Positions 9,401 through 31,880 of a DNA stretch of 34,663 nt are shown piece after piece. Position numbers and translations under genes: made by a program. The notes beneath the pieces are model-generated. The model searched no databases. It was not told the DNA's origin and saw only the letters and a program-made list of their open reading frames with translations. The stretch's first letter is position 1; every line of letters begins with the position of its first letter. The stretch comes from Candidatus Eiseniibacteriota bacterium. Lineage in GTDB: Bacteria > Orphanbacterota > Orphanbacteria > Orphanbacterales > Orphanbacteraceae. Location of the stretch: positions 62,001-96,663 of the forward strand of contig JBDROZ010000069.1 in the NCBI GenBank assembly GCA_043809585.1, read 5' to 3'.

Positions 9401-11717
9401 CATGAGGTGTCGCTCGCCGTGAACCGCTCCGGCGGGGCGGGCGTCGCGATCCTCTTCCCGATGTCCGTGTTCGGGACGGACCAGCCGCAGCTGTCCCCCG
9501 CCCCGATCCCGTACTCGTACGATCCGGGGGGGGGCGTGTCGACGTAGCTGAAGACGCCCGGGCCGAAGGTCGCGAGAAGCGCACCGTCCCGGTAGAGGCG
9601 GTAGCCGTCGGCGCCCGGTGAGGCCGACCAGCTCACGAAGATCACGGCGCACGACGTGTCGCTCGCGGCGACGGTCGCGGGGGACGGAGGAGGAGGAAGC
9701 GCCGTGCCCGTCGCCGTTCGGGACGCCGACCATCCGCAGCTGTTCCCCGATTGCACCTCGTACTGATGGCTCCCCTGGGGCGGCCTGTCGGTGTAGGTGG
9801 TCGCCGTCCCCGGCAGCGTGATCAACACCCCTCCGTCCCGGAGGAGCCGGTAGTTGCTCGCGCCGGCGACGGCGCTCCACGCGAGGTCCACCTCGACGCA
9901 GTCGTCCCCCGTCGCCGTCAGCGACGCGGGCCTTGGCAGCGGGCGACGGGACGATCCGTTCGCCGCCGCCGACCGCTCCCCTTCGCCGCACGTCCCGATC
10001 GCCGCGACCCGGTACTGGCGGGTGCCCACCGGGGCGCCGTTGTCGTCAAAGGACGTCACGTTCTCCGCCGTCGTCCCGACCGGCGATCCGTCCCGGTAGA
10101 TCCGGTATCCGGTCTCGTCGGACTGGTCGTTCCAGGTGACCCGTACCCGGTTACACAGGTGAGTCGTGGCGGCGACGCCTGCCGGTTTCCCGGGAAGGGG
10201 AAGGGCGGACCCGTCGGCCGGCGCGGAGAGACCCGACGCCCCGCACCGGCCGAATGCCTCCACCCGATAGGCGTGCGAAGCGCCGTGGGGGACGGTGTCG
10301 TCGTACTGGGTCACGTCTTTGCCGACCGTCGCCGCGAGGACGCCGTCCCGGTAAACGCGGTAGCCCGTCTCGAGCTCCCCGTCGCTCCAGGTGACGCGGA
10401 TCTCGCCGCACCGATCGGTCGATGCGAGGACATCGAGCGGCATCCGTGGCTTGTCGCACGCCCAACGGGCGATGTGGAGGGCCGGCTTCCGTTCGGCCAT
10501 GGTGAACTCGCCCCCCGCCACGATGCCGTCGTTTTGGAGGACCAGGGCGTGGACCGGAGCGTTCGGACCGAAGCGGACGTTCTCCCATGTGAAGGTCTTG
10601 TCGACGAACCCGAAATAGGGGAACGGTGTGCCCGCGACCCGGTTGAAGTCTCCGGCCGCGGCGACCTGATTGCCGAAGTCGATGAGCGCCCGCACCGGCC
10701 CGTTCGGTCCCTGGCCCGGCACGGCGAGCGCCCCCGGATAGATCCACCGGGTGAGCCGGATACAGGGAAGAGACGGGCCGGTGACCACCGTGAAGTCTCC
10801 GCCGATCCAGAGCGCGGTCGGTCGGGGCAGCAACGTCCGTACGGGCGCGTCGAAGCCGACCGTGGGATCGGCGGGAAAGAGGGAGGTCCAGAAGGCTCCG
10901 TTCCAACGGGCGAAGCGGATCGCGCCTCCCCCGCCCGCTTCGGCGAAGTCGCCTCCCGCCGCGATCTCTCCCTTGAACGAGGCGAGGGCGTAGACCGGGC
11001 CGTTCACACCGGCGCCGAGAGCGGTCCATACGCCTGCGGCGCTTCGAAGGGCCACGTTCGACGCCGGGATCGCGCCGGCGACCAGACCGAACTCGCCCCC
11101 CACGACGAGGTCGCCCCCGTGAACCGCGAGGGCGCGCACGGGGCCGTCGGTCCCGCCGAGGGGGAACCATGCCGAGCCGTCCCACTTCGCGATGTTCGCC
11201 GCGGGGGAACCTCCGGCGGCGGCGAAGGACCCGCCGGCGATGAGGGCGCCGTTCCAGACCACAAGGGCGAGGACGGGGCCGTCGGTCCCCGCGCCGAGGG
11301 GGTGCCAGGCCGCGCCGTCCCACCGGGCCACGTGTGAGGCCGCCCCCCCCCCGCCGTGGTGAACTCCCCTCCCCCGTAGAGACCGCCGTTCCAGACGGCG
11401 AGGGCCAGAACATCGTCGTCCATCCCCGCGCCGAGCCTGCTCCACTGATTCTCCCCCCCCGGTCCGTCGAGGGGAACCACGGGGAGGGAGGCTTCGCCAT
11501 CCTCGAAGGGATCGATGAACTCGATTCCTCCCTCCACTATGGCCTCGGGGGGGGCCACGGGCACGACCGCGGGAGTCACCGGATCGGCGACGGCGGGCGA
11601 AGCGACGGCGAAGAGAAGAAGCAGGAAGAGAGAGGCCGGGCGGAAATCCCCCGGCGCCTTCGAACCGTTTTGCATTCGCGCGGAAAGGGGATCACGGCCG
11701 GGATGGGGTCGCATCAT
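6418..11717 (-). CDS. Very large secreted/surface protein (~1766 aa): WDG-repeat beta-propeller, 11 Fn3-like domains, BACON-like Ig, dockerin-like EF pair, FlgD-Ig CTD; frameshifted at C10 11343-11352
   Basis: GAGGAGG RBS before ATG 11717 and signal peptide LFLLLLFAVASPAVA, in the frame of ORF 11004-11846. Adding one G gives FTTAGGGAASHVARWDG, matching sister repeat FAAAGGSPAANIAKWDG, and joins ORF 6418-11445. Fn3 units show W...YRxYRDG...Y-x-V. Also GDCNGDGVLDERDL/DVNFDAVVGPGDL and IRPNPF...WNGRTDDG...GLYFLKL. Confidence 0.85.
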
Positions 11718-17300: not shown

Positions 17301-17415
17301 GAAACGCGTCGGTCGGGAGGCGATTGTACTGGTACACTCCGGCAGCGATGATGCCGACAAGAAGCACCATAACGAGGAGGCGATTGCTTAGTCCGTACTC
17401 CATTAGTCGATTCAC
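14302..17415 (-). CDS. CusA/CzcA-family heavy-metal efflux RND permease
   Basis: 1037 aa with DAFPDISPVMV, NLMSLGGIAIAIGMLGDASIVVVEN, GTEFIPTLEEG, RLRPVLMTAL and GSEVQRPLAVVV. Confidence 0.96.
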   Translation of the reverse strand: MNRLMEYGLSNRLLVMVLLVGIIAAGVYQYNRLPTDAFPDISPVMVPVFAEAHGMAPEEIERLITFPIESAMNGLPGVNLIKSTSAFGMAVVYVYFDDDFDIYFARQIVAERLTSASADLPKMHEPPRLGPISSGLGEVFMYYLTADATVNTEGKPLDAYLRELNDWVIKYQLQTVPGVTEILSMGGHVLQYEIQLDPYALTKFDLGLKDVVDAISNNNRNAGGQFLVLGSEEYLVRGIGLLEKVEDLRNLQLKVMSGVAVRLGDVASVGYGREIRRGVVTQNGTDEIVAGIIMKLYGENTSEVIARLETRFAEVKESLPEGVDLVPYYNQSTLVGNAVRTVRDALWQGSILVILVLILFLGSARSAFIVALALPVCALVAAICMSVAHMSANLMSLGGIAIAIGMLGDASIVVVENIARHLSSEESKTRRKPAIIVSACREVVRPILFSVSIIIIVFLPLFTLQGVEGKMFSPMAFTITFALLGSLLAALVFAPVLSSFLLKHQVRREFALLRFLKGIYLPILRATLRRRWVVMSITTVAFAGSLALAPFLGTEFIPTLEEGIVQINVTMAPSISLEKATETITKFERMIMEFDEVEQTIAKIGRPEAGSHPHPVNFGHIQLMLKPKSQWRDYESKAGLVEALDKRLSPYPGVQLNFTQPIQNLFDELLSGVRTQLAIKLFGEDLTVLRTKAEEIKEVITPVRGLVDLATEQSFGQPQVQIIADRDACAHYGVDVADILEIVELAIGGEVVDQVYLGTRRFGIHVRFTERYRGDPEAIKRLMIHSSSGMLVPLVQVAKVERVVGPIQINREKNQRRWIISANVRGRDIGGVVGEIRDLVKDNIVLPPGYYVEYGGQFESQQRAMNRLGIIVPVTLGLIFLLLYVALGSLRSSSLIFLNVPLALIGGVFGLYLTGEYLSVPAAVGFIALFGIAVQNGLVLVSYINQLREEGRSTREAVEQASLLRLRPVLMTALTTILGVLPLLLSRGMGSEVQRPLAVVVVFGLLTSTFLTLVLIPTLYGWFAPKLTVEERGDWIG

Positions 17416-17429
17416 GGCGCCATCCTCCC

Positions 17430-18473
17430 TTAATGACCGTGGCCGGCGTGCCCGCCCAGGGCGCCGGTCACGATCTTCGCCTTCAGCTCGAAGGCTCCCG
17501 CGGCGACGTATTCCATCCCTGAATCGAGACCCGCCAGAATTTCGGTAAACCGCGAATCACTCTCACCGACGACGACGAGTACGGGGTTGAAGCTCGCGTC
17601 CCCCTCGGGAATGAACACGACATACTCGTCATCGAGTATCTGAACCGCGTCCTTCTCTACGAGCAAGCGTTCTTCACCCCGACCGGCCATGATATCGGCA
17701 TGGACGAACGTTCCTGGCCTCCATGAGTTTTCGGGGTTCGGGAGAATGATTCGCGCCGTCATGCTTCTCGTTCGCGGATCGAGAATGGGCGTAATGTACT
17801 CGATGGTTCCCTCGGTCGAAAGATCGGACCCGATGGCGTGTAGTGTGACCGTCTGCCCGGGATTGATCTTCTGAACGTCCTTCAGATACACCGCGAGGTT
17901 CACCCACACATGAGTGAGATCGGCGATCACGTAGATCGGCCTGTCCCCCGAGACGAACTCTCCGGGTGTCACGTCCTTCTCGATGATCCAACCGGAGATC
18001 GGCGCCGCGATCGCGTATTTGCTCAGGCTCTCGTTGCTTTCAAGTACGGCGAGAATATCGCCAGACCTCACGCGGTCCCCCATCCGAAAGTGGACCTCAT
18101 GAGCGATACCGGCGAAGCGGGGAACTACGTGCACAAGCCGATCCTCGTTGAACCCCACCTCGCCCGGAACATGGATCGAGGTTTCGATGCTGCCCCGATC
18201 GGCACGGGCCAGTCGAATCCCCGCCATGCGCACCGCCTCCGGTGTCAACTCCAGAACCCCTCCGGCATGATCCTCGTGTCCGTCGTCGGACTGATTTGCT
18301 TCTCCCGCGACGCCCCGCGCGCGATTGTGCTCTTGCTCCTGTTCGTTCTCGTGCTCGTGCTCCCCCTCTTCCGCGAAGCCAAACCGGCCCCCCTCGAGGA
18401 ACCAGGCCGCGAGCAGAACCGAGAGCAAGAGAAGGAGCCGGGAGCGCCCCGTGGTGCCTTGCGTGATCTTCAT
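17430..18473 (-). CDS. RND periplasmic adaptor (CzcB/CusB-like MFP) with His/Glu-rich N-terminal region
   Basis: The likely start is MKITQG at 18473 (GGAGGAGG RBS; ATGA overlap with the TolC stop). Contains EHEHENEQEQEH...HEDH, IAAPISG, IADLTHVWV and LDPRTRS, ending GHAGHGH. Confidence 0.92.
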   Translation of the reverse strand: MKITQGTTGRSRLLLLLSVLLAAWFLEGGRFGFAEEGEHEHENEQEQEHNRARGVAGEANQSDDGHEDHAGGVLELTPEAVRMAGIRLARADRGSIETSIHVPGEVGFNEDRLVHVVPRFAGIAHEVHFRMGDRVRSGDILAVLESNESLSKYAIAAPISGWIIEKDVTPGEFVSGDRPIYVIADLTHVWVNLAVYLKDVQKINPGQTVTLHAIGSDLSTEGTIEYITPILDPRTRSMTARIILPNPENSWRPGTFVHADIMAGRGEERLLVEKDAVQILDDEYVVFIPEGDASFNPVLVVVGESDSRFTEILAGLDSGMEYVAAGAFELKAKIVTGALGGHAGHGH

Positions 18474-19750
18474 CGTTCCTCCTCCTCGCCGGCGTTCATC
18501 TCCGCGAAGGAGACGCCCAGGACGTATTCGAGAGCCGCGAGAGTCCGGCTCGTTTCCGCGCGCGTTTCGATGACGCGGGCTATCGTTTCGAAGAGTGCGC
18601 TTCGGGCCTCGAGCACCTCCCTCATCGGAAGGCGCCCCTGCTCGAATGCCCTCCTCGTCGTCTCGAGCGCCTGTTCCGCTTCCGGAATCAGCCGCTCTTC
18701 GAGGGCGAGGCGCTCCGACCGGAGACCGACGAGACGGTCGTGCAGGTCCCTCGCCTCCGAGAGCGCCCGGGTGCGCGCCGTCCGTTCCCGCTCCTCCGCG
18801 GCGGCCGCCCGAGCTTTGGCTTCTTCCCTTCGCCCCTCCCCCCGGTCGAAGAGAGGGAGGGGGATCGCCGCCTCCGCGACCCACGCCCACTCCCCGTCGC
18901 CGGAATAGGAACGGACCCCTCCACCGAGCCGGAGATCGGGGATGCGCCCGGCCCGGGCAACATCGACCTCGGCGCTCCGGAGACGCGTTTCGAGGGACGC
19001 CCGCCCCACGGAGGGGCCGGCGGCGGCGAGGGGGGCGATGCGCGCCCACTCGGGGATCTCCCCTTCGCTTCCGGAGGGAAGGGCGCCGCCGAACCCGAAC
19101 TCCCCGTCCCCCCAGAGAGCCGCCAGGGCACGGCCGGCCCGCTCCCGCTCCATCGACGCCCGGTCCCGCTCGATCCGGCCCGCCTCGAGCGCCACCCGCC
19201 CGTTCCCCTCTTCCGCGGGGGATCCGGACCCCGCCTCGAGGCGTTTCGCCACGACCTCCCTGAGCTCTTCGGCGAGGAGGAGGCGGTCTCCGGCGAGGCG
19301 CGCCCGCTCCTCCGCGGCGACGAGGTCGGCGAAGCGGACCTTCACCTCCCGAACGAGAGCGAGGGTCCCCTCCCGCCGGGAGAGGGACGCGAACTCCCGC
19401 CCGATCTCGGCGACCCGCACCCGTCGGCCCCGCTTGCCGCCGAGCTCGAAGGTCTGGCCGAGAAGCACGGTCGTCTCTCTCGAATCGAATCCCCCGAGCG
19501 TCCCCGTGCCCCCGAAGTTCTCCCACTCGACGCCGAACTCGGGGTTCGGGCGCCGTCCCTCCTGGAAGGCCCGGGCCTCCCCGGCCTCTTCCTCGAGACG
19601 GAGGGCGCCGAGTTCAGGGCTTCGTTCGATCGCCAGCTCGAGAGCCTTCCCCAGGGTGAGCGGCCCCCCGTTCTCTATGGCCTCCGCGGGCGGGGCGGGA
19701 CCCGGAGAGATGAGAGCGGCGATCGCCATCATGCATGCGGTTCGTTTCAT
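18470..19750 (-). CDS. TolC-family outer membrane factor (CzcC-like)
   Basis: LTLGKALELAIERSPEL, RPNPE, QTFELGGKRGRR, IPLPLFDRGEG and AFEQG...EVLEAR. Confidence 0.92.
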   Translation of the reverse strand: MKRTACMMAIAALISPGPAPPAEAIENGGPLTLGKALELAIERSPELGALRLEEEAGEARAFQEGRRPNPEFGVEWENFGGTGTLGGFDSRETTVLLGQTFELGGKRGRRVRVAEIGREFASLSRREGTLALVREVKVRFADLVAAEERARLAGDRLLLAEELREVVAKRLEAGSGSPAEEGNGRVALEAGRIERDRASMERERAGRALAALWGDGEFGFGGALPSGSEGEIPEWARIAPLAAAGPSVGRASLETRLRSAEVDVARAGRIPDLRLGGGVRSYSGDGEWAWVAEAAIPLPLFDRGEGRREEAKARAAAAEERERTARTRALSEARDLHDRLVGLRSERLALEERLIPEAEQALETTRRAFEQGRLPMREVLEARSALFETIARVIETRAETSRTLAALEYVLGVSFAEMNAGEEEER

Positions 19751-19888
19751 CGTTTCGATTCCATGTCCGCCCGGGGATCCCCGGGGCTCGGGGATTCGCG
19801 GGCGCGATGAGGCCGATGGGTTTCCCGGGCGGGCAAAAGACGTCGTCCGCTTACCGGTGTGAACGGATGGGTCCGGATGGAGGCCGGC

Positions 19889-20236
19889 TCAAAGCCGGAG
19901 GGGATTCCCGCGGGACGAATGGGAGGCGGAAGGAACAAGGGCAGCCCGGCGCCCGGGCGTCCCGGCGGGGGTTCCCGCCTCCGAGGCGGCCGGCGCCGGG
20001 ATCACGGCGTGGAGGGGGAGGCCCTCCGGCAATGGGCCGGCGGTCTTCTCCGCCCGGACCACGAGGGTGAGCTGGTCGCAGGGGTCCTCGTCGCACTCCG
20101 TCTCATGGGCGCACAGGTCGTCCTCCTTTCCCGCCTCGTCACAAGCGCAGGGGTGGAGTAGGAGCCCGGCGGAACAGAGGACCGGAGAGCCGAGCAGGAC
20201 CCAGAGGGCGACCAGAATGAACAGCCGTTGCATCAT
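19889..20236 (-). CDS. Small exported Cys/His-rich leader protein upstream of the metal RND operon
   Basis: Signal-like MMQRLFILVALWVLLGSPVLCSA, then HPCACDE...CAHETECDEDPC and a Pro/Ala-rich linker, ending RGNPLRL. A TATAAT box (20246-20251) lies 9 nt before the ATG. Confidence 0.65.
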   Translation of the reverse strand: MMQRLFILVALWVLLGSPVLCSAGLLLHPCACDEAGKEDDLCAHETECDEDPCDQLTLVVRAEKTAGPLPEGLPLHAVIPAPAASEAGTPAGTPGRRAALVPSASHSSRGNPLRL

Positions 20237-20344
20237 GATGGCACGATTATACACGATTCGGCCCACTCGTGGCGCCTCGAGTAACCAGATACCCTATTTT
20301 CGGCGAAAGAAATCGTCTTGGGGAAACAGGGTATCTGGTTACAG

Positions 20345-20375
20345 AAAGAAGAGCGGCCCCGAGGGGCCGCTCTTC
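20345..20375 (-). terminator. Intrinsic terminator after the omcS-like gene
   Basis: GAAGAGCGGCCCC/GGGGCCGCTCTTC stem, followed on the minus strand by TTTCTGT. Confidence 0.8.
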
Positions 20376-20403
20376 CCATGCGATCAAGCCGTTCGACGTC
20401 CTA

Positions 20404-21525
20404 CTACGGGCCTACCGGGTAGGGCATGTGGTCGAACGCGTCCTTCACGTGGCACTTGTTGCAGAGCGAGCGCTGGTTGTCGGTGAAGGTGTACTGGTAG
20501 TACTTGTTCGCGATGTCCTCCACGCTGGCGCCGCCGTCGCCGTCCTGCGGGTGCGACTCGTCATTGATGAAGGCCGCGCCGAAGTCCCAGCGGCCGGCAT
20601 CCGGGAACGCCGACGCGTGGGCGCGGTGGCAGGTCACGCACATGACACGATCCGTACCGGCCGGGCCGAGGGTGTAATCCGTCGGGTCCGCGGTCTCGAG
20701 ATCGACGTTGACCGCCTCGAAGGGCACGAGGCCCCAGTAGGAGGTCGCCTGGACGCCGCCGTCCTGGTCCTCGGAGCTGACATAGGCGTTGTACACGGCC
20801 GCCACGGTCGAACCGAGGTTCTGGCCCGTCGGGTGCACGAATTTGGTCGTGTTAGGGGAGTGGAAGGTCTCATGGCAGTTCGCGCACCAGAGGGACATTC
20901 CCGACTTGTGGATCGTGTGCCGGGCATCGGTCTCGTTGCCGCCGCCGCCCACGTAGGTCCGGCGGCTGTTGCCGGCGGCGATCGGAGCGTTCGAGACGAA
21001 GTCGTAACGAGTGCCGCCGTAGATCGGGCCGAGGGCCGAGCCGTAGAGAAGACGGAAGCTCTCGTTGCCGTGCGGGTCGTGGCAGCTGGTGCAGGTCAGG
21101 TTGGTGGAAAGAAAGTCCCCGCCCGGCGCCGAACCCAGGGTCGCGTCAAAGGTCAGGCCGTAGGCCGGACCGTACACGTTGTGGCCGTGGCTGTCGCCCG
21201 TGCTCTCGTTGGCATGGCCGTGGGACGTCCAGGTGAAGGTCTTGGTGAGCCAGTAGAAATCGCCACCCGGACCGTAGCCCAGGCCGCCGAAGAACTGGCC
21301 GTAGGCGGCGTGGCAGCCGAGGCACGTGTCGGTGGAGTTGCCGTTGTTCAGCAGATACGCGTTTCCATTCGGATGAGCCGCGTCCACGAGGGCGCCGTCC
21401 TGGCTGTTATGCATCGTATGGCAGCCCTGACAGTCGGCGACGCCGGCGTCGTGGAACGCGAGACCGCTGCCGCTGGCCAAGGCGACAGCGAAGATCGCGG
21501 TCAGAAGAATCTTGGTGAACTTCAT
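20404..21525 (-). CDS. omcS: Hexaheme c-type cytochrome, OmcS/OmcT nanowire family homolog (373 aa)
   Basis: AGGAGG RBS and Sec signal ending SGLA. Mature N-terminus FHDAGVADCQGCHTMHNS, versus FHSGGVAECEGCHTMHNS in G. sulfurreducens OmcS (recalled). Six CxxCH motifs. Shared motifs PGGDFxWxxKTxTW, GHNV, APGG, CxSCHDPHG, GMSxWCANCH, CxxCHRAHAS and QRxLCNKCHxKD. Tandem TAG TAG stop. Confidence 0.88.
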   Translation of the reverse strand: MKFTKILLTAIFAVALASGSGLAFHDAGVADCQGCHTMHNSQDGALVDAAHPNGNAYLLNNGNSTDTCLGCHAAYGQFFGGLGYGPGGDFYWLTKTFTWTSHGHANESTGDSHGHNVYGPAYGLTFDATLGSAPGGDFLSTNLTCTSCHDPHGNESFRLLYGSALGPIYGGTRYDFVSNAPIAAGNSRRTYVGGGGNETDARHTIHKSGMSLWCANCHETFHSPNTTKFVHPTGQNLGSTVAAVYNAYVSSEDQDGGVQATSYWGLVPFEAVNVDLETADPTDYTLGPAGTDRVMCVTCHRAHASAFPDAGRWDFGAAFINDESHPQDGDGGASVEDIANKYYQYTFTDNQRSLCNKCHVKDAFDHMPYPVGP

Positions 21526-21608
21526 GGAATGCATGCCTCCTGGAGATGGTCTCGACAAAAAAACATCATGCCCGAACAAGGAACGCCATAGGCTCTTACC
21601 TCCCTGAA

Positions 21609-22580
21609 TCACGAAGCACTCCCCCGATACCCGGAAGTTCCGGCTTCCGTCTCGACAAGACGGAACGCCTGCACCCGGCCCTCGAACCCTTGAGCCACCC
21701 ACAGTCTGCCGTCGGGCAACGCGGCGATCGCCGTCGGATGGTATAGGTTGCCGGTTCTCGCTCCCAGGCTCCCGTGCTCGCTCAGAAGTCGAAACTCCTC
21801 GTCGTACGCGAGAATGGTGTGCCGCATCCGGTCGAGCACGAGAATGGTGCCGCGAAAGCCGAATGCGATCCCCACGGGGAAGGCGAGCTCGCCCCTTCCC
21901 CCACCGGGCACACCGAACGTCGACAGGAGCTCTCCCTCGGGCGAAAGCACCAAAACGTAACGCAACTCTCCCCCGGGGACGAAGATCCGTCCGTCCGGGG
22001 CTTCCGCCGGGCGGCCGATGATCAGCCCCTCTTCCCGGGGATCCTCCACCGGCATCCGGGTCCAGAGAATCTCGCCCGTCTTTCCGTCATGTTTCGCCAG
22101 CAGACCGCTGGCCTGATCGACGGTCACGAGATCCCCGTCCCGGGTGACGAGGAGATGGCCCGGAGACCAATCCTCGGTGGGCCGCTCCACCTCGAAAGGC
22201 GTCGGCTCGCCCAGGTAGTTCAACCGCCGGATCGTTCTCTTCCCGTTCGGGCTCCGGTCCGTGCAGACGAAGCTGCCCCACAATTCGATGGAGCCGTCCT
22301 GGGGAGACGACATCCCGGCAATGTTGCCGGTCATGAATGTATGGATGTTGTGCCTGTTGTATACCAAGAGTCCCCGCGCTCCGTCATCGGTCACACAGAT
22401 CTCACCACTCACGGGATTGACCGTGACTGCGGTGGGGCGGATGGGCCGGGTCGACGACGTCACACCCGAAAGTACCCCCTCGTACCGCAAGGTCAGGCCC
22501 GCGTGAAGCGGCGCGACCGAGAGAATAATGAAAAGCCCGCAGAGAACAAGTCCCATACGAACTCGTCTTTTCCGTTCCAT
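21609..22580 (-). CDS. Secreted NHL-repeat beta-propeller protein (OscD-like by context)
   Basis: GGAGG before ATG 22580 and a signal peptide. NHL motifs RPTAVTV, FGVPGGGRGELAFPVGIA and GSLGARTGNLYHPTAIA...RVQAF. Confidence 0.85.
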   Translation of the reverse strand: MERKRRVRMGLVLCGLFIILSVAPLHAGLTLRYEGVLSGVTSSTRPIRPTAVTVNPVSGEICVTDDGARGLLVYNRHNIHTFMTGNIAGMSSPQDGSIELWGSFVCTDRSPNGKRTIRRLNYLGEPTPFEVERPTEDWSPGHLLVTRDGDLVTVDQASGLLAKHDGKTGEILWTRMPVEDPREEGLIIGRPAEAPDGRIFVPGGELRYVLVLSPEGELLSTFGVPGGGRGELAFPVGIAFGFRGTILVLDRMRHTILAYDEEFRLLSEHGSLGARTGNLYHPTAIAALPDGRLWVAQGFEGRVQAFRLVETEAGTSGYRGSAS

Positions 22581-22637
22581 AGTCTCGAGCCTCCGGGGGG
22601 GCATGACCGTCGCCCTGCTCGCTTCCTACAGTTGTGC

Positions 22638-22850: not shown

Positions 22851-25800
22851 TCAGCGGCTTCGGATCTTGTCAATGTGACACTTGACGCAGAGGGGGCCCC
22901 CCGGATCGCCCGAGAGAATGCCCTCCCACTCCGACCCGTGGGGATTGTGACAACTGACGCAAGTGACCGGCTTTCCGGTGACCGGGTCCTTCACTTCCGG
23001 GCCGACCGGGTGCATCGTGTGGTCGCCGAACCCGTGGCACCGCCCGCAGATATCCCCCTCTTGCCCCACCGGCCCGAGGGCATCGGCATGCGGGTCATGG
23101 CAGGTCGTGCAGGCGCCGATGCCCGTCTCCGGGTGATGGTATTTCGCCTTCACCGAGGCGAGCACCAAATCCCCGTGGCAGCCGGCGCAGACCGTCTGCT
23201 GGTCCGCCGCGAGGAGGTTCTTCTCCGGCGCCGTGTGGGGTTCGTGGCAGGCGGTGCACTTCCCGTCACCGACCGGCCCGTGGGCTTTCCCTTCTCGAAC
23301 CACCGCCTGAATGCCGTCGTGACACTGGTAACAGACCCGGTCCTCGGCGGCGGTCAACGTCTTCAGGGACCCCTCGTGACAGCCGGAACAGTTCCCCTCC
23401 TCGAAGGGGGGGTGGACATTGTCGTAGGCGAGGGCGGTCCCGTCCGATGCGTGGGGGATCGTGGCATCGGTTGCATCTGGCCCCCGTGAGATCCATGCCC
23501 CGGTGGCTCCGGTTCATGGCCGGGTTGGTCGTATTGTGGCACCCGGCGCAAAGCTCGGAGAGGTCCCGCTTGAGGGCGAAGGTGTGCTCCGTACCGTGGG
23601 GATCATGGCAGCGGAGGCACATGTCCCTCCCGAAGGGGGAGTGGACGCGGGCCTTCTTCTTCAGGGCCAGCATGTCGGGATGGCAGTCGAAGCAGAGATC
23701 CCGGGACGACTCCTTGAGGAGCGACGCATGGTCCGATCCGTGGCTCTCGTGGCAGCTCTCGCACCGGCCCTCCCGGACCGGGGCGTGGGCCAGTTCCAAG
23801 CTCGGGAAGAGACTCGACCGATCGTGACACCCGGCGCAGCTCTCCCCGGCGCTCCCGGCGAGGAGAAACTCGCCCCGCGCGACGTGGGGATTGTGGCATC
23901 CCGTGCAATCGCCCGCCTCGAAGGGGGCGTGAATCTTGGTCTTGCCCGCCACCGCCTCCCGCACGTCGTCGTGGCACATGAGACAAAGCTCGGCGGTCTC
24001 CGTCCCCTCGGCGATGGCGTCGTGACACATCGCGCAGTCGCCGTCCGCGAACGGGGGGTGGGCGTTGGCGAGCAGAAGCGACGCCCCCGCCGAGCGGTGC
24101 GGGTCGTGGCATGAGGCGCAGTCCAGGGTCGACGGGTCGAGCCCGAGGTGCTTCCCGCGAAAGTCGGCGTCCTCCTCGTCGTGGCAGTCGAAGCAAAGGC
24201 CAGGAATCGGAGAGTTCAGGAGGGCGTGCTCCGGGCCGCCGTGCGGCCTATGGCAGGCCAGGCAATCGTCCTGGACCGGGCCGTGCACCGAGCCGGCCCC
24301 CGCCATGTCGACCACGTCCTCGTGGCAGCTGGCGCAGAGGAGGAAGGAGGGGGCCGCGAGGAGCGCCTTCTCCTCCGAGCGATGGGGGGTGTGGCAGTCG
24401 AGACAGGCCCCCGCCGCCACCGGCCCGTGCATGAACGGCTTTCCCGCCCCGTCCGCGATGTCGTCGTGACATGTCCCGCACAGCTCTTCGGGCTCGGCTA
24501 CCAGCATGGCGGTACGCTCGCCGCCGTGGGGCTCGTGGCAGTCGAGGCACATGCCGGCGACGGCCGGGGCGTGCACGCTTCCCTTCTTCGATTCGGCGAC
24601 GACGTCGTCATGACAGGTCAGGCAGAGCTCCTCCGGGGATTGATTCAAGAGGCCCGCGCGATCCGAGACGTGGGCGTCGTGACAATCGAGGCACCGCCCC
24701 TCGGCGACCACCTTGTGAGGATGGGCGGACGCGTTCAGGAGTTTCACGTTCAAATGGCACGAGAGACAGAGATCGCCCGGCCGCTGCTCCAAGAGGGCCA
24801 CATGGCGGGAGGAGTGCGGATCGTGGCAGGCCGTGCACGCCTGCTTGACGAAGGGGGCGTGGCGGAACCGTCCTTCCTTATCCTGAAGGGAATCCTCCGT
24901 GTGACAGCCGAGGCACTGCTCGTTCGTCTCCGCCTTCAAGAGAGCCGGGAAGGCGCCGCCGTGGGGCTCGTGACAGGTGGCGCACTCCCCGCCCGCGACC
25001 GGATCGTGCACGGTCTGCAGTCCCATGTCGGGCGTGTCGTGACAGTCGGCGCAGAGCCGGTCCTGTCGCTGCACGAGAAGCCCCGGAAACGCGCTGCCGT
25101 GCGGGTCGTGGCAGGTCCCGCACGAACCATCCTCGAAGGGGGCGTGGGAGACTTTCGCCCCCTCGCCGACTTCGTGGCACATGAGACAGATCTCCTCGTA
25201 CCCCTCGACCAGCTCCATCGCTCCGCCGGCGCCCGCGGCGTGACAAGTTTCGCATTCCATGCCGGCCACGGGGCCATGGATCGCGCCGCGCAGCAGCGTC
25301 GGCTCCGCGGAACTGTGGGGATCGTGACAGGAGGTGCATGGTCCGGACGCGACGTCCCAGCCGCCGTGATTCTCCCGGAGCGTCGATTCGTTCTTGTGGC
25401 ACCCGAGACAGAGATCGCGGCCCGGCTTTACGAGCAGACCTTCGTATTCCGAGGCGTGGGCGTCGTGGCAACCCCCGCACCCTTCCTTCAACAAGGGCTT
25501 GTGGACGTGTTCCCGCTCGAAAGCGGATCGGTCGTGGCAGCCGTAGCAGAATTCGGCGCCCCGCGCCGGCAGGAGCAGGGGTTCGCCCGTTCCGTGGGGG
25601 TGGTGGCACGCTTCGCACCCCTCCTTGTCCAGGGGGGCGTGCACGTGGGCCGCCTCGTCCACGGCGGCGTACTCCTCGTGGCAGGTCGTGCAGAGACCGG
25701 GGCCCTTCGCCTTCAGGATGAGCCCGCCGAGAATGCCGTGCGGCTTGTGGCAGGAGTCGCACTTCTTGTCCTTGAATGGATCGTGGGCGTGGGATCGCTT

Positions 25801-25965
25801 GACTTCTCCCCGAAGATCCTCGTGGCAATCGAGACAGTCTTTCGGCTTGAATCGGTCCGAGGCGCGCGCCCCCACCGGCCCGAAGACCGAGCAAACGATC
25901 AGCGCCGACAGGACGAACCCCGCCGACCGGTGCCAACCCCGTCGATGCCGATACCCCGCACTCAT
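22851..25965 (-). CDS. Giant multiheme cytochrome c (paired-CxxCH family), ~1037 aa, 42 CxxCH by hand count; frameshifted at G5 23453-23457
   Basis: 34 CxxCH motifs in ORF 23266-25965 up to CNRCHDP. Deleting one base continues HASDGTALAYDNVHPPFEEGNCSGCH into ORF 22851-23357 and adds 8 more. N-terminal signal peptide ends GARA. Confidence 0.9.
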
Positions 25966-25969
25966 CGTC

Positions 25970-27688
25970 CTAGCCCCCCGATCCCGTGTTCGCCGACGAA
26001 GCGGGCGTCTCCGCCCCCCCGCCCACCCCCGACTCCGGTACCCACGCGCGGATTCGCTCCGCGATCACTTCCTCCGCCCCCGGCGCGATCTTCGTTTCCG
26101 AGGCCCCTTCGAGACGCTCCAGGGCGACCTTGATCAACTCCTGGTTGCGGCGGTTTCTCATCTCCCGAAGGACCTGGTGGCGGCACTCCGCGAGGGGCGG
26201 GGTCGAGACGCGCTCCACCGCGTCGACCACTCCGACCACGAAGCCGCCCTCCGTCTCCACGGGACCGACGACGTTCATGTCCGCCGCGTCCGTCTCGTCG
26301 AAAAGGGAGGGCTCGATCCACCCGGAAAACGACGGGGGCCCGACCTCGACCACGCCCTCGGCCCGCTCCGAGAGCCACTTCAGCTTCGCCCCCTTCTCGA
26401 CCATCTCCCTGAAGGCGGCCGCCGAAGACAGGTCCGCGAGGAGGACGCTCGACACCTTGATCCGCGGCTTCGGCATGAAGGCCTCGGAATGGGCCGAGTA
26501 GAACTCCTCGACTTCCTTCTCTTCCGGCTCGAAGGGGACGCCGAGGATCAGCCGCAGCACTTCCTCCCGGAGGAGGCCCCGCTCGAGAGCGCGCGCATGG
26601 CGCAGGATATCGTCTCTCGAGAGGAACCCGAGGACCGACGCCTCGTAAGAGAGAAGGGCTTCGGAAAAGTACTCCTCGAACATCTTGTCCCGAACCTCGT
26701 TCGCGTTCGGCTTCCCCGCGAGTCCGTGGAAGTAGACGTAGAGTATGCTCTTCGTCAGGCCTTTCACCGTGAGAAAGCCGATCGGCGAGTGGGCGAGGGT
26801 GTCCTCGCTCGTGCGGAGATACTCCTGCACCTTCGGATCCTCCGAGCCGTAGTCGAGAGAGGCGAGCAGGGAGTCGTCGACCACCATGCCGTACTTCTCG
26901 CGGACCGATTCGGTGAAGGACCGGACGGCGAACATGACCCGATCCTTCATGATCGCCTCTTTGATCGCCCCCCTCATCTCCTCGGAAGTGCCGAGATTCT
27001 CCTCTCGCCGGTCGACGAGGCGCACCAGGTGCCACCCGAATTGGGTCTTCACGGGTCCCGCGGTCCCCCCCGGTTCGAGGGATCGGACGGCCTCTTCGAA
27101 CTCGGGTACGAAACGCCCTTCCCGGGCCCAGCCGAGATCGCCCATTTTCTTCGCCGATGTCGAGTCGAGGGAGTGCCTCGCCGCGAGGTCCCCGAAGGAG
27201 ACGCCCGTTTCCAGACTCTCGCGGAGCGCGCGCGCTTCCTCTTTCTCGGTCACGAGGATGTGGGAGACGCGATTCATGATGTTCGACACGTTCGTGAAGC
27301 TATCCAGCTCCGCCTCCGTCGGCTCCGCCACGCCGTTCGACACGGAGTCGAGGAGGGCCATCATCCCCTTGTGCCGCCGAAGCTCGCGCACTTGATTCCG
27401 GACCGCCGGGAGCGAGTCGGCGCCGATGCGGTACCCTTCCTGTTCGAGAAGACGGTTCTGGATCAGCCGCCGGAGCAGCCCATCCGGGCTCGGAAGGGCC
27501 TCCTCTCCCCCCTTGCGGAACACCGCTCCGAAGGCGGCGAGCTCGCGGTTCAAGTCTTCCACCGTGATGTCCTCGCCGTTCACCGTGGCGAGCCGGTCTC
27601 CCGCCCCGGCGGCCCGGGCCTCGCCGAATCCGGCCGGGGAGAGGAGGAGGAGGGCGATGACCGGCAGCAATCGTTCCCGATGAATCAT
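25970..27688 (-). CDS. SurA/PrsA-like parvulin PPIase chaperone (OscH-like by context), 572 aa
   Basis: Start MIHRERLL (GGAG RBS) with a signal peptide. LATVNGEDITVEDL, then parvulin motifs VSHILV, FGDLAARHSLD, GDLGW, FVPEFEEAV and GPVKTQFGWHLV, plus a second degenerate parvulin domain. Confidence 0.88.
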   Translation of the reverse strand: MIHRERLLPVIALLLLSPAGFGEARAAGAGDRLATVNGEDITVEDLNRELAAFGAVFRKGGEEALPSPDGLLRRLIQNRLLEQEGYRIGADSLPAVRNQVRELRRHKGMMALLDSVSNGVAEPTEAELDSFTNVSNIMNRVSHILVTEKEEARALRESLETGVSFGDLAARHSLDSTSAKKMGDLGWAREGRFVPEFEEAVRSLEPGGTAGPVKTQFGWHLVRLVDRREENLGTSEEMRGAIKEAIMKDRVMFAVRSFTESVREKYGMVVDDSLLASLDYGSEDPKVQEYLRTSEDTLAHSPIGFLTVKGLTKSILYVYFHGLAGKPNANEVRDKMFEEYFSEALLSYEASVLGFLSRDDILRHARALERGLLREEVLRLILGVPFEPEEKEVEEFYSAHSEAFMPKPRIKVSSVLLADLSSAAAFREMVEKGAKLKWLSERAEGVVEVGPPSFSGWIEPSLFDETDAADMNVVGPVETEGGFVVGVVDAVERVSTPPLAECRHQVLREMRNRRNQELIKVALERLEGASETKIAPGAEEVIAERIRAWVPESGVGGGAETPASSANTGSGG

Positions 27689-27692
27689 GATT

Positions 27693-28805
27693 TCAAGACT
27701 CCATGAGCCGCGCGGGGAGGGCCTTGGCCATCCTCTCCGCCGCCCGGTCGAAGCGCCGGGGCAACGAGTGCGTATGTACGACACCGAAGAGCCCCAGCGG
27801 GTTTTCCCTGTCGATGAATTCGGAGGCGCCGTACAACACGGTCCCCGTCCGGCTGTCCACAACGGTCAGCTCCAAGAAAAGTGGTTCCTCCGCGCTCCGG
27901 GCGGGCGTGAGAAAGACGTCTTCCTGAAGGAAGGCGGGCAGGTTGCCCCCCACCGGAGTCTTGTACGAAAGGAGGGTGGACATGAGGATCGGCGCTTCGC
28001 CGAAGCGCTCGACGAGGGCCGCCCGCGCCTTCTCCCCGACCACCCCGGGCGGATACCCGCGGTCCTGCAGATCCCGCACCACGAGGGCCGGGTCCGTCAA
28101 AATCCAGCGGCCGTCCCGCACGAGGGCGCCCAAGATCGAATAGGTCGCGAGGTCGGTCTGGACAGGCTCGACCCCGACCGGTTGGACGGGAAGGAATATC
28201 AGTTCACGGGCGCTCTCGGACACCGGCGTCACCCGGAACCGTTCCACGACGGACGCGGCGACGCGGTCGAGCAACTCGCTCCACTCCACGGCCGTCCCTT
28301 CACCCGCTTCGAGAGCGGGGGCGATGAAAAGCTCCTCGACCTGGTCGATCCAGAAGATCCGCCCCGTCCGGGCGTCAAGGGCCCGGCCGTGGAGGATCAC
28401 CCGGTCGGTGTACACCGAGAGGTCGAGCACCATCAGCCGCTCCGCCCCGAGCCGGGCCGAGGTCTCGAAGAGAAACTCGTAGCCGAAGCTCCCCCCGGTC
28501 CTCACGCGCCATGCCTGGAGAAGAGGTTCCATGAGGGGATAGGGGATCACCTCGTCCCCCCGGGCCTCGAGCTTCTCCGTCACCGCCCTGTAGGCCGCGA
28601 TGCGGACGAGAGAGGGGTTGATGGGGGGGAGGAACCTGCTCCTATAAGAGACGAAGACCATCAGGGCCGTGCGCTGCGGCGCGGGGGCGACCGCCGGCGG
28701 GTGATGGTCCTTCGCCGAGGCCCGCGCCGAAAGAAACGCGGTGGGAGAGAAGAGGGCCGCCCCGAGGAGGCCTGTCGCGAGAATGAGCGCCCGTTGTTTC
28801 ATCAT
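27693..28805 (-). CDS. Exported protein with two CsgG/TolB-N-like alpha/beta domains (OscG-like by context)
   Basis: Signal peptide and two similar halves (GRALDARTGRIFW; LTVVDSRTGTVLY). Tightly packed in the operon. Confidence 0.65.
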   Translation of the reverse strand: MMKQRALILATGLLGAALFSPTAFLSARASAKDHHPPAVAPAPQRTALMVFVSYRSRFLPPINPSLVRIAAYRAVTEKLEARGDEVIPYPLMEPLLQAWRVRTGGSFGYEFLFETSARLGAERLMVLDLSVYTDRVILHGRALDARTGRIFWIDQVEELFIAPALEAGEGTAVEWSELLDRVAASVVERFRVTPVSESARELIFLPVQPVGVEPVQTDLATYSILGALVRDGRWILTDPALVVRDLQDRGYPPGVVGEKARAALVERFGEAPILMSTLLSYKTPVGGNLPAFLQEDVFLTPARSAEEPLFLELTVVDSRTGTVLYGASEFIDRENPLGLFGVVHTHSLPRRFDRAAERMAKALPARLMES

Positions 28806-28809
28806 CCGC

Positions 28810-29391
28810 CTACAGGAGGGTGCCGAGCGCCTCCCGCACCGATTTCCGGGAAACCTCGTGGAGGCTCGCCGAGGAGCCGCCGAACAACCTCTTCCACGTG
28901 GACATACCGGTCACGTTGACCTGGGATTGCCAGACAGCCGTTCCCGTCTCGGTCTCGGCGAGGCCGAACAGGGCGGTCACCTCGTTCCCCCGGTCTCGGC
29001 TCGACCGGTCCATGCCGTATTCCTCCACGGTGCCGAAGAAGAGGGCGTCGACGCCGAGGCGTTGTCCGAGACTCACAAGCTGCGCGGGGGAGAGGTCCGA
29101 GTCGGCCATGAGACGAAGTTCCAGCATCGCCGCCAGCACCTCGCCCGTCCCCACCAACTCGAGGCTTCCTTCCTCGAGGATCTCCATCATGAAGATGGAA
29201 TGGATCCGTTCGTCCGCGTACTCGTCAGGAGAGAGATTCTGGAAGGGGAGGATCGCGACCCGCCGGATGAACCCGAAATCGACTCCCGGATGGACGAAGC
29301 CCGACTTCCGGGACGAGGCGCACCCGCCGCCGAGGGCCCCCGCGATCAACAGGATCGCGGTCAATCGGTATCCGGTTCGCCAAGCTCTCAT
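28810..29391 (-). CDS. Lipoprotein, CsgG/GNA1162-like fold (OscF-like by context)
   Basis: Lipobox-like LGGGC. RVAILPFQNLS, LGQRLGVDALFFGTVEEY and LAETETGTAVW. Confidence 0.8.
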   Translation of the reverse strand: MRAWRTGYRLTAILLIAGALGGGCASSRKSGFVHPGVDFGFIRRVAILPFQNLSPDEYADERIHSIFMMEILEEGSLELVGTGEVLAAMLELRLMADSDLSPAQLVSLGQRLGVDALFFGTVEEYGMDRSSRDRGNEVTALFGLAETETGTAVWQSQVNVTGMSTWKRLFGGSSASLHEVSRKSVREALGTLL

Positions 29392-29449: not shown

Positions 29450-31699
29450 TCAAAAGGTCAAGGCGACCCGAAAGCCGCCCGTGATCGGGCTGCTCTTTTC
29501 CTCGCCCCGCCGGTATTGCTGGAACTGGAGATCCCCCTCCGTCCGGAGCCGGGGATAGACTTTCCACAGCATCGTGGCCCCGGCGCCCCGCTGGTCGCTG
29601 TCATTCCGGGTGTCCCGAAAATGACTGAGCGTGAGACGGGGCTCCAGGTCCCCGCCGGGGAAGGGGCTCCAGGAGAGGAGGTTTTGGGTGATCCAGTTCG
29701 AATCGCCCCGCACTTGGTATCTCGCTTCGCTCCGGTAATTGAGCTGCGGGAAGGGGATCCACGCGAGAGTGATCGAGGTGTCGTTGAAGCGGGTGAAGCC
29801 CGTGCCCGCTTCCAGATCGACCCATCGATCGGTCCGGCGCAGGTCGATGTTGACCGTCGCCACCGGGCGGGCCCGGACGTTCGTCGCCAAACTGTACGAA
29901 CTCGACAGGAGACCCTCGTCGAAGTCGTCGAGCCGGCCGTGGGTGACTTTCTGGTCGAAGCGGAGGGCCGGCGCGATCTGCCAATTGAACCCGAGAGAGT
30001 AGTTGTCGGTCGCCTTGTCGAGGTTCCCGCTCCGGTCGCGGGACCGGGACCACGCGAAAGTGCCGGAGACCGGGCCGCTCCTCCCGGCGCGCAGGGAGAC
30101 GCCCATATTCTCCGTGTCCGTACCCTTGCGGGTCGGGCTCGAGAGGGAGTGGGTCTCGTACCGGCCGCTGACGAGAAGACGCCCGACGTCCCATTGGGAC
30201 GAGAATCCGTGACTCCGCTCGACCAGGTCCTGGTTGGTCTCGGAAAAGACCCGCTCCCGGTACAGGCCGTCGTACCGCACCCGGAAATAATCGGTCACCG
30301 CGTATCCGACGCTCCCATCGATCCGGTGCGTGGCGTTGTCTTCCGTCCGTACATTCCCGGAGTCCTCGTCCTTCGAGAAGACCTCCAGCTCCGTGATGAA
30401 AAGCTCCGGCTCCGTCTCGCCGATCTTCACGTCCACGATCTTCAAGAACCGGGCGGTGATCCCGGCGGGGAAAACAAACTCCCACCCCTGGAAGCCCGTG
30501 CCCAGCTCCCGGTACCGTATGGTGAAATCCGCGGGCGAGACCTCCTCGAATTGGCTCCGCTCGGGATCGTTGCTGACGAAGATCCGCCACCGATAGAGGT
30601 CGGGGGTGAGCAGAATCCGGTCCACGTAGAGGAAGACCGAGTCCATCCGCGTCTCGTCGCCGAAGTCATAGAGCAGGTTCCGGTAATCGCCGCCGAACTC
30701 GCGCACCATCGAGGCGTCGTCCCCCAGATCGATCTCGGTCGGGGTCGACCGATCCCGGTCGTAGAGGCCGGAGACCTGCGTCGGCCCGTCCTCCAAGGGA
30801 TCGATCGCCTCCGGGGTGTCGTCGAGAAGATAGCCGCCGGAGAGGGGTGTCACGTAAAGGCCCTGGCTCCCGTCCGCGGGCGACTCCACTTTCTGGTCGA
30901 AGTAGCGGGAGTTGGCGCGGACTTGGATATCGCCCCGGTCTTCGCGAAAGCGGCCGCTCCCACGATACTCGAAGGTGTGGGACTGATGGGTCGTGAGGAC
31001 CTCCCGGTCGACGGCGTCGTTCCGGAGACGGGAGTACGCGTATTTGAACCGGCCGACGCGCCGGATCCCTTGCTCCGCTCCGAGGGACAAGGCGGACTCC
31101 CGGACCTCCTCCCGTCCGATGCCCGTGACGTCCCGGCGAGAGTCGTTTCTTTGCCACCGGGCGTCGAGATTCGTTCCCCTCTCGGAGCGGAGATTGACCC
31201 AACCGCCGTACTCGAGCCTTTCGAGTACCGGCGCCTCGGAGTCCGCCGTGAATTCCCGCCGGTAACCGCTCCCCTGAAGCCCCAGGCGAAAGTAGTGGGA
31301 GCTGTAGTCCAGGTTCGCCCCCGGCTGAAGGGTGACGGCCTCGAAGTCGCTCGACGTTCCCTGAATGCGGCTGTCGCTGAACTCCCGGAGCACCCGGAAC
31401 CGTGTGGCGAGGGTGAACCGGGACCTGACCCCGATGGGCTGGCGGAGTAGGATCTCCTCACGCCGCGTGTGGGCGCTGAACTCTTCGCCGCCCGCGCGCC
31501 CTTCCTGGTAGGTGTTCCTGAGGTCCAGCCGGCCGTCGAGGGCGAAGGAAAGGGAAGGGGCGAAGAGAAGGCACGCCAAGGGGATGAAGAGGAGCGGACC
31601 GATCGGACAAGGGGCGGCGATGCCCGTCCGGCGAGGACCGACGGTCGCGGAAGCGGCGCGGATGCGGACCTTTTCAGGCGCTTCGGGCGCAGGCGTCAA
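29450..31699 (-). CDS. Outer-membrane beta-barrel protein with inserted discoidin/F5-8-like domain (OscE-like by context)
   Basis: Start uncertain; TTG 31699 follows AGGAG in frame with ORF 29450-31870. Signal ends SLSFA-LDG. Many amphipathic Y/W/F-alternating strands and a terminal-Phe beta-signal GGFRVALTF. Confidence 0.75.
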   Translation of the reverse strand: MTPAPEAPEKVRIRAASATVGPRRTGIAAPCPIGPLLFIPLACLLFAPSLSFALDGRLDLRNTYQEGRAGGEEFSAHTRREEILLRQPIGVRSRFTLATRFRVLREFSDSRIQGTSSDFEAVTLQPGANLDYSSHYFRLGLQGSGYRREFTADSEAPVLERLEYGGWVNLRSERGTNLDARWQRNDSRRDVTGIGREEVRESALSLGAEQGIRRVGRFKYAYSRLRNDAVDREVLTTHQSHTFEYRGSGRFREDRGDIQVRANSRYFDQKVESPADGSQGLYVTPLSGGYLLDDTPEAIDPLEDGPTQVSGLYDRDRSTPTEIDLGDDASMVREFGGDYRNLLYDFGDETRMDSVFLYVDRILLTPDLYRWRIFVSNDPERSQFEEVSPADFTIRYRELGTGFQGWEFVFPAGITARFLKIVDVKIGETEPELFITELEVFSKDEDSGNVRTEDNATHRIDGSVGYAVTDYFRVRYDGLYRERVFSETNQDLVERSHGFSSQWDVGRLLVSGRYETHSLSSPTRKGTDTENMGVSLRAGRSGPVSGTFAWSRSRDRSGNLDKATDNYSLGFNWQIAPALRFDQKVTHGRLDDFDEGLLSSSYSLATNVRARPVATVNIDLRRTDRWVDLEAGTGFTRFNDTSITLAWIPFPQLNYRSEARYQVRGDSNWITQNLLSWSPFPGGDLEPRLTLSHFRDTRNDSDQRGAGATMLWKVYPRLRTEGDLQFQQYRRGEEKSSPITGGFRVALTF

Positions 31700-31880
31700 T
31701 AGCCAAAGCTCCTGCCGGCGGGGAACCTCATCTCGTGGGGTCGAACGAAAGCCATCGTAGCACACGCCTCTGAAACTGTGAACCGGGGAAACTTTTTTCC
31801 CGGGGGCCATGGTCCCCGGGTTCTCCGCCGGCGGGGGGGAGAGGAGGGTCCGGGGGCTTTTCTGTGACATCGCAACTCTT

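Follow-up and report, generated by a model that had tools for sequence, protein, structure and literature searches.

The model for long-range electron transport in biology is the OmcS-type filament, and the Geobacter protein is the only one with a solved structure in the copy of the Protein Data Bank (PDB) that we searched. Could such a filament also be built from a shorter cytochrome that carries a C-terminal tail where OmcS stops? The question is raised by a gene at positions 20404..21525 (minus strand, like all features of this DNA given below) of a 34,663-nucleotide stretch of contig JBDROZ010000069.1, from assembly GCA_043809585.1 of a Candidatus Eiseniibacteriota bacterium; the whole stretch is called the window hereafter. 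An earlier note, made from the letters of the sequence, had described its product as a streamlined OmcS homologue that keeps the inter-subunit ligand His16 and has an extra tail. We found that the gene almost certainly encodes an exported hexaheme c-type cytochrome of the OmcS family, that the protein is a good candidate filament subunit as predicted from its sequence and its companion genes, and that its size and its possession of a short tail are normal among its relatives.

OmcS (PDB 6EF8/6NEF) is the only significant relative of the predicted protein in the PDB. The phmmer alignment (E-value 1.8e-47) covers OmcS residues 1-157 and 185-407, and a 12-sequence profile reaches an E-value of 1.1e-70 over residues 1-181 and 185-407. 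Judged from these alignments, in which the two proteins share 33-39% identity, the relation is one of homology and not of chance, and the identity proposed by the earlier note stands. So does its exact N-terminal register: in both the phmmer and the profile alignments the mature start, F1-H2-D-A-G-V-A-D-C9-Q-G-C12-H13-T-M-H16, is gapless against OmcS, mature residues 1-16 falling on residues 1-16 of 6ef8_A and His16 (residue 39 of the precursor, codon at 21409..21411) on its OmcS namesake. At mature positions 9, 45, 122, 191, 273 and 332 the protein has its six CXXCH motifs, each of which pairs with an OmcS motif in the same order; Pfam gives only the generic Paired_CXXCH_1 signal on this protein.

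The predicted fold agrees with the sequence comparison. An AlphaFold2 (AF2) model built from 149 sequences, with a predicted local distance difference test score (pLDDT) of 88 and a predicted template modelling score of 0.83, matches only 6ef8_A in Foldseek (E-value 1.6e-22, template modelling (TM) scores 0.74/0.69), the next match having an E-value of 4. VIA-align places residues 29-362 of the model on residues 6-407 of the chain, with a Z-score of 30.7 and a root-mean-square deviation of 2.4 Å over 317 residues. Confidence is lowest at residues 21-30 (block mean pLDDT 48), around the predicted cleavage site and the earliest mature residues, at residues 151-160 (55) and over the tail at 361-373 (67 and 53). 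The tetraheme nanowire OmcE (PDB 7TFS) is related to this protein neither in sequence nor in fold, being absent from the phmmer, profile and Foldseek matches; what it has in common is a principle, an interfacial heme ligated by one His from each adjacent subunit, as described in a passage of PMC12954529.

The gene has the signals of an intact, exported product. Its precursor of 373 residues, followed by a stop codon, begins with a putative signal peptide (residues 1-23, 21457..21525) that would be cleaved after the Ala of G-L-A and before the Phe that becomes Phe1, leaving 350 mature residues. The context of this site is conserved (Ala at -1 in 147 and Phe at +1 in 145 of the 149 rows of our family alignment, A2), and the solved OmcS chain begins at the aligned Phe, matching the predicted mature start; we infer from this that the signal peptide is removed at this point. 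A Shine-Dalgarno-like AGGAGG lies 10 nucleotides 5' of the ATG (21536..21541). About 27 nucleotides past the stop stands a hairpin resembling an intrinsic terminator (20339..20377), with a G+C-rich stem of 14 base pairs followed by UUUCUGU. When the minus strand of 20320-20410 was folded as RNA, the hairpin had a free energy of -36.8 kcal/mol (z -2.73 against shuffled sequences) and was kept in the centroid structure; it is absent from the output of the consensus terminator scanner, and a sigma-70 promoter scan of 19700-22000 gave no match. Among the sequencing runs, one biofilm metagenome (X1, DNA) is the only DNA run that holds the gene, with a word share of 0.47 and exact short contigs at a depth of 2-4 (at 80% likeness). 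The RNA runs contain 5-6% of its words, and the pieces from X7, X9 and X10 are only 80-95% alike; these pieces stem from relatives and thus provide no evidence on the transcription of this gene.

The differences from OmcS lie in the loops and at the C-terminus. The mature protein is 57 residues shorter than the OmcS chain (350 against 407). We located the missing residues by comparison with a Desulfobacterota orthologue (L090) used as a stand-in for the G. sulfurreducens protein, to which it is related with an E-value of 1.7e-147 to 6ef8 over residues 1-407. Relative to this orthologue, the protein lacks 17 residues after heme 2 (in blocks of 9 and 8), 35 after heme 3 and then 3, 5, 8 and 3 further on, and it has 4 extra residues in addition to the tail. 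OmcS ends in KD after heme 6, whereas the protein studied here continues for 11 residues, AFDHMPYPVGP (residues 363-373, 20407..20439). The lengths, the shorter loops after hemes 2 and 3 and the tail past heme 6 are thus as the earlier note had read them.

Are the residues needed for heme ligation retained in this shorter protein? OmcS has 12 axial ligands, all His, of which the subunit itself provides 11 and its neighbour one (in a passage of Filman et al., 10.1101/492645), and its His-16 ligates heme V of the next monomer (in a passage of PMC13319180). Our literature search found no residue list for the OmcS distal ligands, including in the text of 10.1101/2022.08.01.502099. We examined the conservation of His in the family. 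A scan of one genome per species gave 560 relatives among 594 pattern matches, and the best 79 loci were used for counts of context; these come from metagenome-assembled genomes (MAGs) labelled Krumholzibacteriota, Eisenbacteria, Fibrobacterota, Gemmatimonadota, Latescibacterota, Ignavibacteria, Zixibacteria, Calditrichota, Acidobacteriota, Desulfobacterota, Nitrospirota and others. The conservation of His was counted in the 99 open reading frames (ORFs) of these loci chosen by tblastn alone. An earlier set of 70 rows had required the His2/His13/His16 motif, which makes its 70/70 true by construction and had dropped 12 of 81 loci.

Twelve columns stand out, and the protein has His in all of them. 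In precursor numbering, with the number of ORFs out of 99 that carry His, they are 25 (95), 36 (96), 39, i.e., His16 (94), 72 (97), 115 (98), 149 (99), 152 (99), 218 (98), 231 (98), 300 (98), 303 (98) and 359 (96), the misses being mostly truncated ORFs. In 14 genes from Desulfobacterota, the same columns hold His in 14/14, except the His16 column (12/14). The printed alignments give 17 His in OmcS (2, 13, 16, 51, 53, 63, 110, 139, 144, 147, 243, 247, 257, 309, 332, 335 and 404), and the conserved columns correspond to 12 of them: 2, 13, 16, 51, 110, 144, 147, 243, 257, 332, 335 and 404. Because there are as many such columns as ligands, and the five remaining His of OmcS vary, we take the 12 conserved columns as the probable axial ligands, all of which would be present here. 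The distal ligands would then be OmcS His2, 110, 147, 257 and 335, together with His16 donated by the neighbour. The protein studied here has no counterpart of the five variable His (53, 63, 139, 247 and 309). Mapping the ligands on an alignment with OmcS, a check that the earlier note had proposed, thus yields 12 out of 12 conserved His, their ligand roles, other than that of His16, being drawn from conservation.

A thirteenth His is characteristic of the relatives and not of OmcS. Position 203 (window positions about 20917-20919) holds His in our protein and in 95 of the 99 ORFs, whereas it is Arg or Lys in 12 of the 14 Desulfobacterota genes and Arg228 in OmcS. We considered and rejected His203 as an axial ligand, given the Arg of OmcS and the 5 of 14 Desulfobacterota genes that lack both His203 and the clade-specific His63. 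It marks a clade-level switch and may contact a heme propionate.

The genomic context carries the second part of the evidence. The gene is the last of a co-directional series that runs, in order of transcription, through a predicted outer-membrane beta-barrel, a lipoprotein of 193 residues, a protein of 370 residues, a peptidyl-prolyl isomerase (PPIase), a 42-heme cytochrome, an NHL-repeat protein and the OmcS-like gene, and ends at the terminator-like hairpin. Such clusters have been described: for the osc (omcS companion) operon, Shen et al. 2025 propose functions in folding (OscH), secretion (OscE/F/G) and morphology (OscD) (as summarised in PMC13194489), and large beta-barrels are noted in most OmcS regions (in a passage of PMC13712944). 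The cluster in the window is probably an osc operon. Its SurA/PrsA-like PPIase is a candidate for the OscH role, and the predicted large beta-barrel and the two LpoB/CsgG-like lipoproteins are candidates for the roles of OscE/F/G.

The genes of the cluster differ in how clearly they can be assigned. Immediately upstream of the OmcS-like gene lies the NHL-repeat beta-propeller protein (21609..22604, 331 residues, Pfam NHL, E-value 7.4e-9). It is preceded by the very large multiheme cytochrome (22851..25965), whose 34+8 = 42 CXXCH motifs are spread over two overlapping frames (23266-25965 and 22851-23357, Paired_CXXCH_1, E-values 1.6e-181 and 4.5e-30). Its homologue is a single ORF of 1077-1147 residues with 42 CXXCH in four loci (L006, L010, L023 and L025), and the frame in the window changes near 23440-23450. 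The PPIase (25970..27862, start codon uncertain) has Pfam Rotamase domains (E-values 2e-18 to 3e-19), a weak SurA_N signal and matches to NCBIfam PPIase models. The 370-residue protein (27693..28805) has no Pfam match and is probably a CsgG/LpoB/FlgO-like lipoprotein, from leads in the ESM Atlas only (feature score 0.93 to CsgG-family clusters and TM 0.6-0.67 to clusters named 'lipoprotein family'). The 193-residue protein (28810..29391) is LpoB/GNA1162-like (Pfam LpoB, E-value 6.6e-5; GNA1162-like, 9.4e-5). The predicted barrel (29450..31870, 806 residues) also lacks a Pfam match. In its AF2 model (pLDDT 71.5), residues 112-805 form upwards of 30 long antiparallel strands, interrupted by a poorly modelled insert (residues 334-396, pLDDT < 50). 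Its best Foldseek match in the PDB is MtrB of the Mtr complex (E-value 5.7e-10, with TM scores of only 0.33/0.39); TonB-dependent receptors and ushers come next, and its nearest Atlas clusters are hypothetical proteins of 730 residues, mostly from Thermodesulfobacteriota.

This organisation is conserved in related loci. Homologues of the neighbours were found beside the OmcS-like gene in the 79 loci as follows: the barrel in 30, the 193-residue lipoprotein in 51, the 370-residue protein in 19, the PPIase in 35, each multiheme ORF in 53 and the NHL protein in 58; many of the loci are too short to include the distal genes of the cluster. The order and orientation of the window are kept in about 25 of the 79. 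Two Geobacter-type genomes have a run of lipoprotein, PPIase and multiheme cytochrome in the same relative order near OmcS-like genes (contigs G298:C9 and G178:C13). The lipoproteins are 34% identical to the one in the window (E-values 4e-30 and 3e-28), the PPIases 24% and 23% (1e-24 and 2e-18) and the 42-heme counterparts 35-36% (3e-159 and 5e-165); the barrel and the 370-residue protein have no tblastn match in these two clusters at an E-value of 1e-4. In G298:C9, an NHL homologue (20% identity) and a further OmcS-like gene (L092) directly follow the run, and the OmcS orthologue L090 is on the same contig. G178:C13 has its NHL homologue (27%) and its second OmcS-like gene on the opposite strand, about 10 kb past the first. 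A companion cluster homologous to that of OmcS is thus shared with the window. Separately, a second OmcS-like gene directly 3' of the first was seen in several loci.

How might these components work together? For this protein, we infer the heme ligation pattern, export, polymerisation and conductivity as follows. The precursor would be exported by the general secretory (Sec) pathway and cleaved at Phe1, and the mature protein would bind six bis-His hemes in a linear chain. The subunits would then polymerise head to tail as in OmcS, with His16 serving as the sixth ligand of the neighbour's heme 5 and heme 1 stacking on the neighbour's heme 6, and so form an insulated conduit for electrons outside the cell. 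The products of the co-directional upstream genes, i.e., the barrel, the two LpoB/CsgG-like lipoproteins, the SurA-like prolyl isomerase, the 42-heme cytochrome and the NHL propeller, would take care of folding and export. We regard this explanation as a whole, an exported hexaheme cytochrome that polymerises like OmcS with the help of its companions, as reasonably probable. The step that matters most, that the protein forms a filament by the OmcS mechanism, we hold with moderate confidence because His16 is strongly conserved, the ligand set is complete and the companion cluster is full. Filament formation is a reasonable inference, and the conservation of the companion cluster strengthens it.

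Several points weigh against this explanation. The retention of His16 is not sufficient for polymerisation. There are three other hexaheme OmcS homologues in G. sulfurreducens, and OmcS is the only one identified as a filament subunit by cryo-EM (as stated in a passage of PMC12954529). In G298:C9, the OmcS-like gene that stands just after the NHL gene is L092 (G298:C9:17957-19204), which lacks His16, and the OmcS orthologue is at the other end of the cluster. The assignment of the OmcS His to hemes comes from conservation and not from coordinates, His16 excepted. The 42-heme gene is out of frame in this assembly, which may reflect decay of the cluster or an assembly error. Matches to the OmcS-like gene were limited to one of the 8 genomes searched in the same family, and the 32 more distant genomes gave none. 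Polymerisation is plausible; a homodimer prediction (two copies of residues 24-373 with 4 hemes) scored 0.00 in both runs, with a mark of 0.42, and weighs neither way.

The strongest alternative is that the protein is an OmcS-family cytochrome that does not polymerise, acting as a monomeric hexaheme carrier in the periplasm or at the outer surface, with heme 5 left five-coordinate or completed by another residue or a partner, as may hold for the Geobacter paralogues. The filament status of OmcS alone among the four G. sulfurreducens homologues and the missing His16 of the positional counterpart L092 both speak for it, as does the presence in the host of two further intact paralogues (L003, with 7 CXXCH, and L004), either of which could be the filament subunit. 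Yet His16 is kept in nearly all family ORFs, which is hard to explain if it has no ligand role. The gene is also the sole OmcS-like gene within the host's companion cluster, and an NHL gene followed by a His16-bearing OmcS-like gene is the common arrangement across phyla, including in Desulfobacterota (L058 and L080). We consider the non-polymerising carrier unlikely, if the most serious of the alternatives.

The Geobacter paralogues offer a further comparison. OmcT (GSU2503) and OscC (GSU2501), as well as OmcJ (GSU0701), are, like the protein studied here, hexaheme and OmcS-like, and partly encoded within the osc operon (according to a passage of PMC13194489), and L092 likewise follows an NHL gene. 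In contrast, a quick tree places the Geobacter-type paralogues within the Desulfobacterota clade and separately from our protein, and two of them, L092 and L085 (contig G178:C10), have Thr and Ser in place of the His16 that our protein keeps; this comparison used sequences from Desulfobacterota genomes as stand-ins for OmcT, OscC and OmcJ.

What, then, of the size and the tail? The earlier note had regarded both as departures, and here its reading gave way once relatives were counted. More than 4214 proteins are homologous at an E-value of at most 1e-5 among 8000 candidates scored. The best 120 of them are 329-431 residues long, mostly 362-372, are 64-80% identical to our protein, and have six CXXCH in 118 cases; where their source is named, it is Krumholzibacteriia, Eisenbacteria or a MAG called simply 'bacterium'. 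A length of about 365 residues is thus the norm among these best matches, not a streamlined form. The tail, defined as the residues after the last CXXCH-x-K-D, is present in 145 of the 149 relatives in A2, so that it is hardly extra: 6-8 residues long in 115 of the 149 rows and absent from 4, it has Asp365 in 143 rows and Pro368 in 112, and the residue that follows is usually aromatic or Leu. Our protein fits this pattern, with a tail that is 11 residues long and has a one-residue Met insertion and a PVGP extension. The closest comparison is with the compact (~365-residue) cytochromes of MAGs labelled Krumholzibacteriia, Eisenbacteria, Gemmatimonadota and Latescibacterota, which share 64-80% identity over the full length, equal size, the tail pattern x-[G/F]-D-x-P-aromatic and the order of the cluster; only the tail, 6-8 residues in these proteins, differs. 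The short tail is a family trait, and the conserved Asp365 probably has a structural role near heme 6 or the subunit junction.

The same counts bear on the suggestion that the His or Met of the tail controls polymerisation, whether as a cap that can be removed, as a regulatory ligand of a heme or within a propeptide that is cleaved off. In OmcS, heme 6 is paired with a heme of the following monomer (in a passage of PMC13319180), and the tail, which comes after heme 6, would thus be close to the junction; it is modelled with low confidence in the monomer, and several lineages also have a His at this position. But this residue, His366, is shared by only 9 of the 149 rows, the Met367 column is gapped in 126, all 12 ligand positions are already occupied by conserved His, and the residues of the tail that are conserved, Asp365 and Pro368, are not heme ligands. 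The role given to the tail by the earlier note therefore finds no support in conservation, and we consider it very improbable. Least credible of all is that the gene or its cluster is a decaying remnant that no longer functions. In favour of this are the frame shift of the adjacent 42-heme gene, a truncated OmcS-like copy on contig C45 and the patchy distribution within the host's family (1/8). Against it, the ORF is uninterrupted and keeps all the conserved residues, along with a ribosome-binding site and a terminator; the remaining six genes of the cluster are open, and one frame change in an assembly from a metagenome is just as likely to be an error.

We also sampled the side of the family to which OmcS belongs. 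In a sample of 401 genomes of the Desulfobacterota phylum, 20 had matches, from which the 14 genes were taken. Their mature products have 373-424 residues, 11 of the 14 end at KD like OmcS, and one (L090) is a true OmcS orthologue. We built a quick maximum likelihood tree with IQ-TREE, midpoint-rooted, from 84 rows (the 70 motif-filtered ones and these 14). The protein studied here groups with 27 compact tailed proteins, mostly of 341-351 mature residues and up to 375 in seven. This clade is sister (Shimodaira-Hasegawa-like approximate likelihood ratio test, SH-aLRT, 96) to a Desulfobacterota/Myxococcota clade, to which OmcS belongs and which holds all the long proteins and every tail-less one except L040. 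The other 38 rows are compact and, save L040, tailed. The simplest reading, tentative since the root is not established, is that OmcS is an expanded, tail-less derivative. A stronger version, in which the compact tailed protein is the original architecture of the family, the Geobacter OmcS a late derivative with expanded loops and no tail, and Asp365 and His203 the marks of a different subunit junction or heme environment, we consider doubtful. As a separate observation, some OmcS-like paralogues have a seventh CXXCH (L003 on contig G000:C41, L070, L072, L009, L017, L024, L035 and L097). In four of these (L003, L070, L072 and L097) the additional motif precedes the usual N-terminal motif, and these proteins would therefore not start at Phe1.

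The host genome is rich in cytochromes. It has 4.24 Mb, 66% G+C and an estimated completeness of 97%, and contains 26 open frames with at least 4 CXXCH. Four of its loci are OmcS-like: the gene studied here, which is the only one inside the companion cluster, the 7-heme and 6-heme paralogues L003 and L004, and a truncated copy, L002 (G000:C45:9684-10499). The latter, 72% identical and with 4 CXXCH, is a remnant in which the first ~96 residues (signal peptide, hemes 1-2 and His16) are missing in every upstream frame. The RpoB of the host is 72% identical to that of the genome that holds the closest OmcS-like gene (L012, labelled Gemmatimonadota) and 64-67% identical to those of genomes labelled Eisenbacteria, Latescibacterota and Krumholzibacteriia. 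Directly downstream of the gene, the window encodes a resistance-nodulation-division (RND) efflux set (14302-19750) made of an AcrB-family pump (E-value 9e-284), a CusB/HlyD-type adaptor whose N-terminal stretch is rich in His and Glu, and a TolC-like outer-membrane factor; the set looks like a metal-efflux system. Further along are a protein of 1675 residues with a rhamnogalacturonan-lyase beta-sheet, fn3 and FlgD-Ig domains (6418-11445) and, nearby, an extracytoplasmic function (ECF) sigma factor (1684-2283).

Part of this picture was known. OmcS homologues are described as widespread (in passages of PMC10954620 and PMC12954529), OmcS genes were reported in Krumholzibacteria from a FeGenie screen (in a passage of 10.1101/2020.09.22.307553), and our literature search found iron-reduction genes already reported in MAGs of Ignavibacteriales and Zixibacteria. 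OmcS filaments in Shewanella are the subject of a preprint (10.1101/2023.10.26.564108). In this respect, the protein is an ordinary member of the OmcS family, whose homologues and assembly cluster are already known as widespread. In the same search, no source was found to describe the compact tailed architecture as that of the majority; it may be described in Shen et al. 2025.

With this gene the family gains one more intact example that has its companion cluster complete, from a lineage that is uncultured, rich in cytochromes and not part of Desulfobacterota. The comparative result is the more useful one: in its common form, a protein of this family is some 60 residues shorter than OmcS and has a short conserved tail. 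The only PDB relatives of the compact clade are the OmcS structures 6EF8/6NEF, with no compact-clade filament among them. Since the common form is shorter and tailed, a member of this clade is a sensible target for work on structure and conductivity. If the compact form is the original one, the filaments of this widespread clade would differ from those of OmcS in helical geometry, surface or redox tuning.

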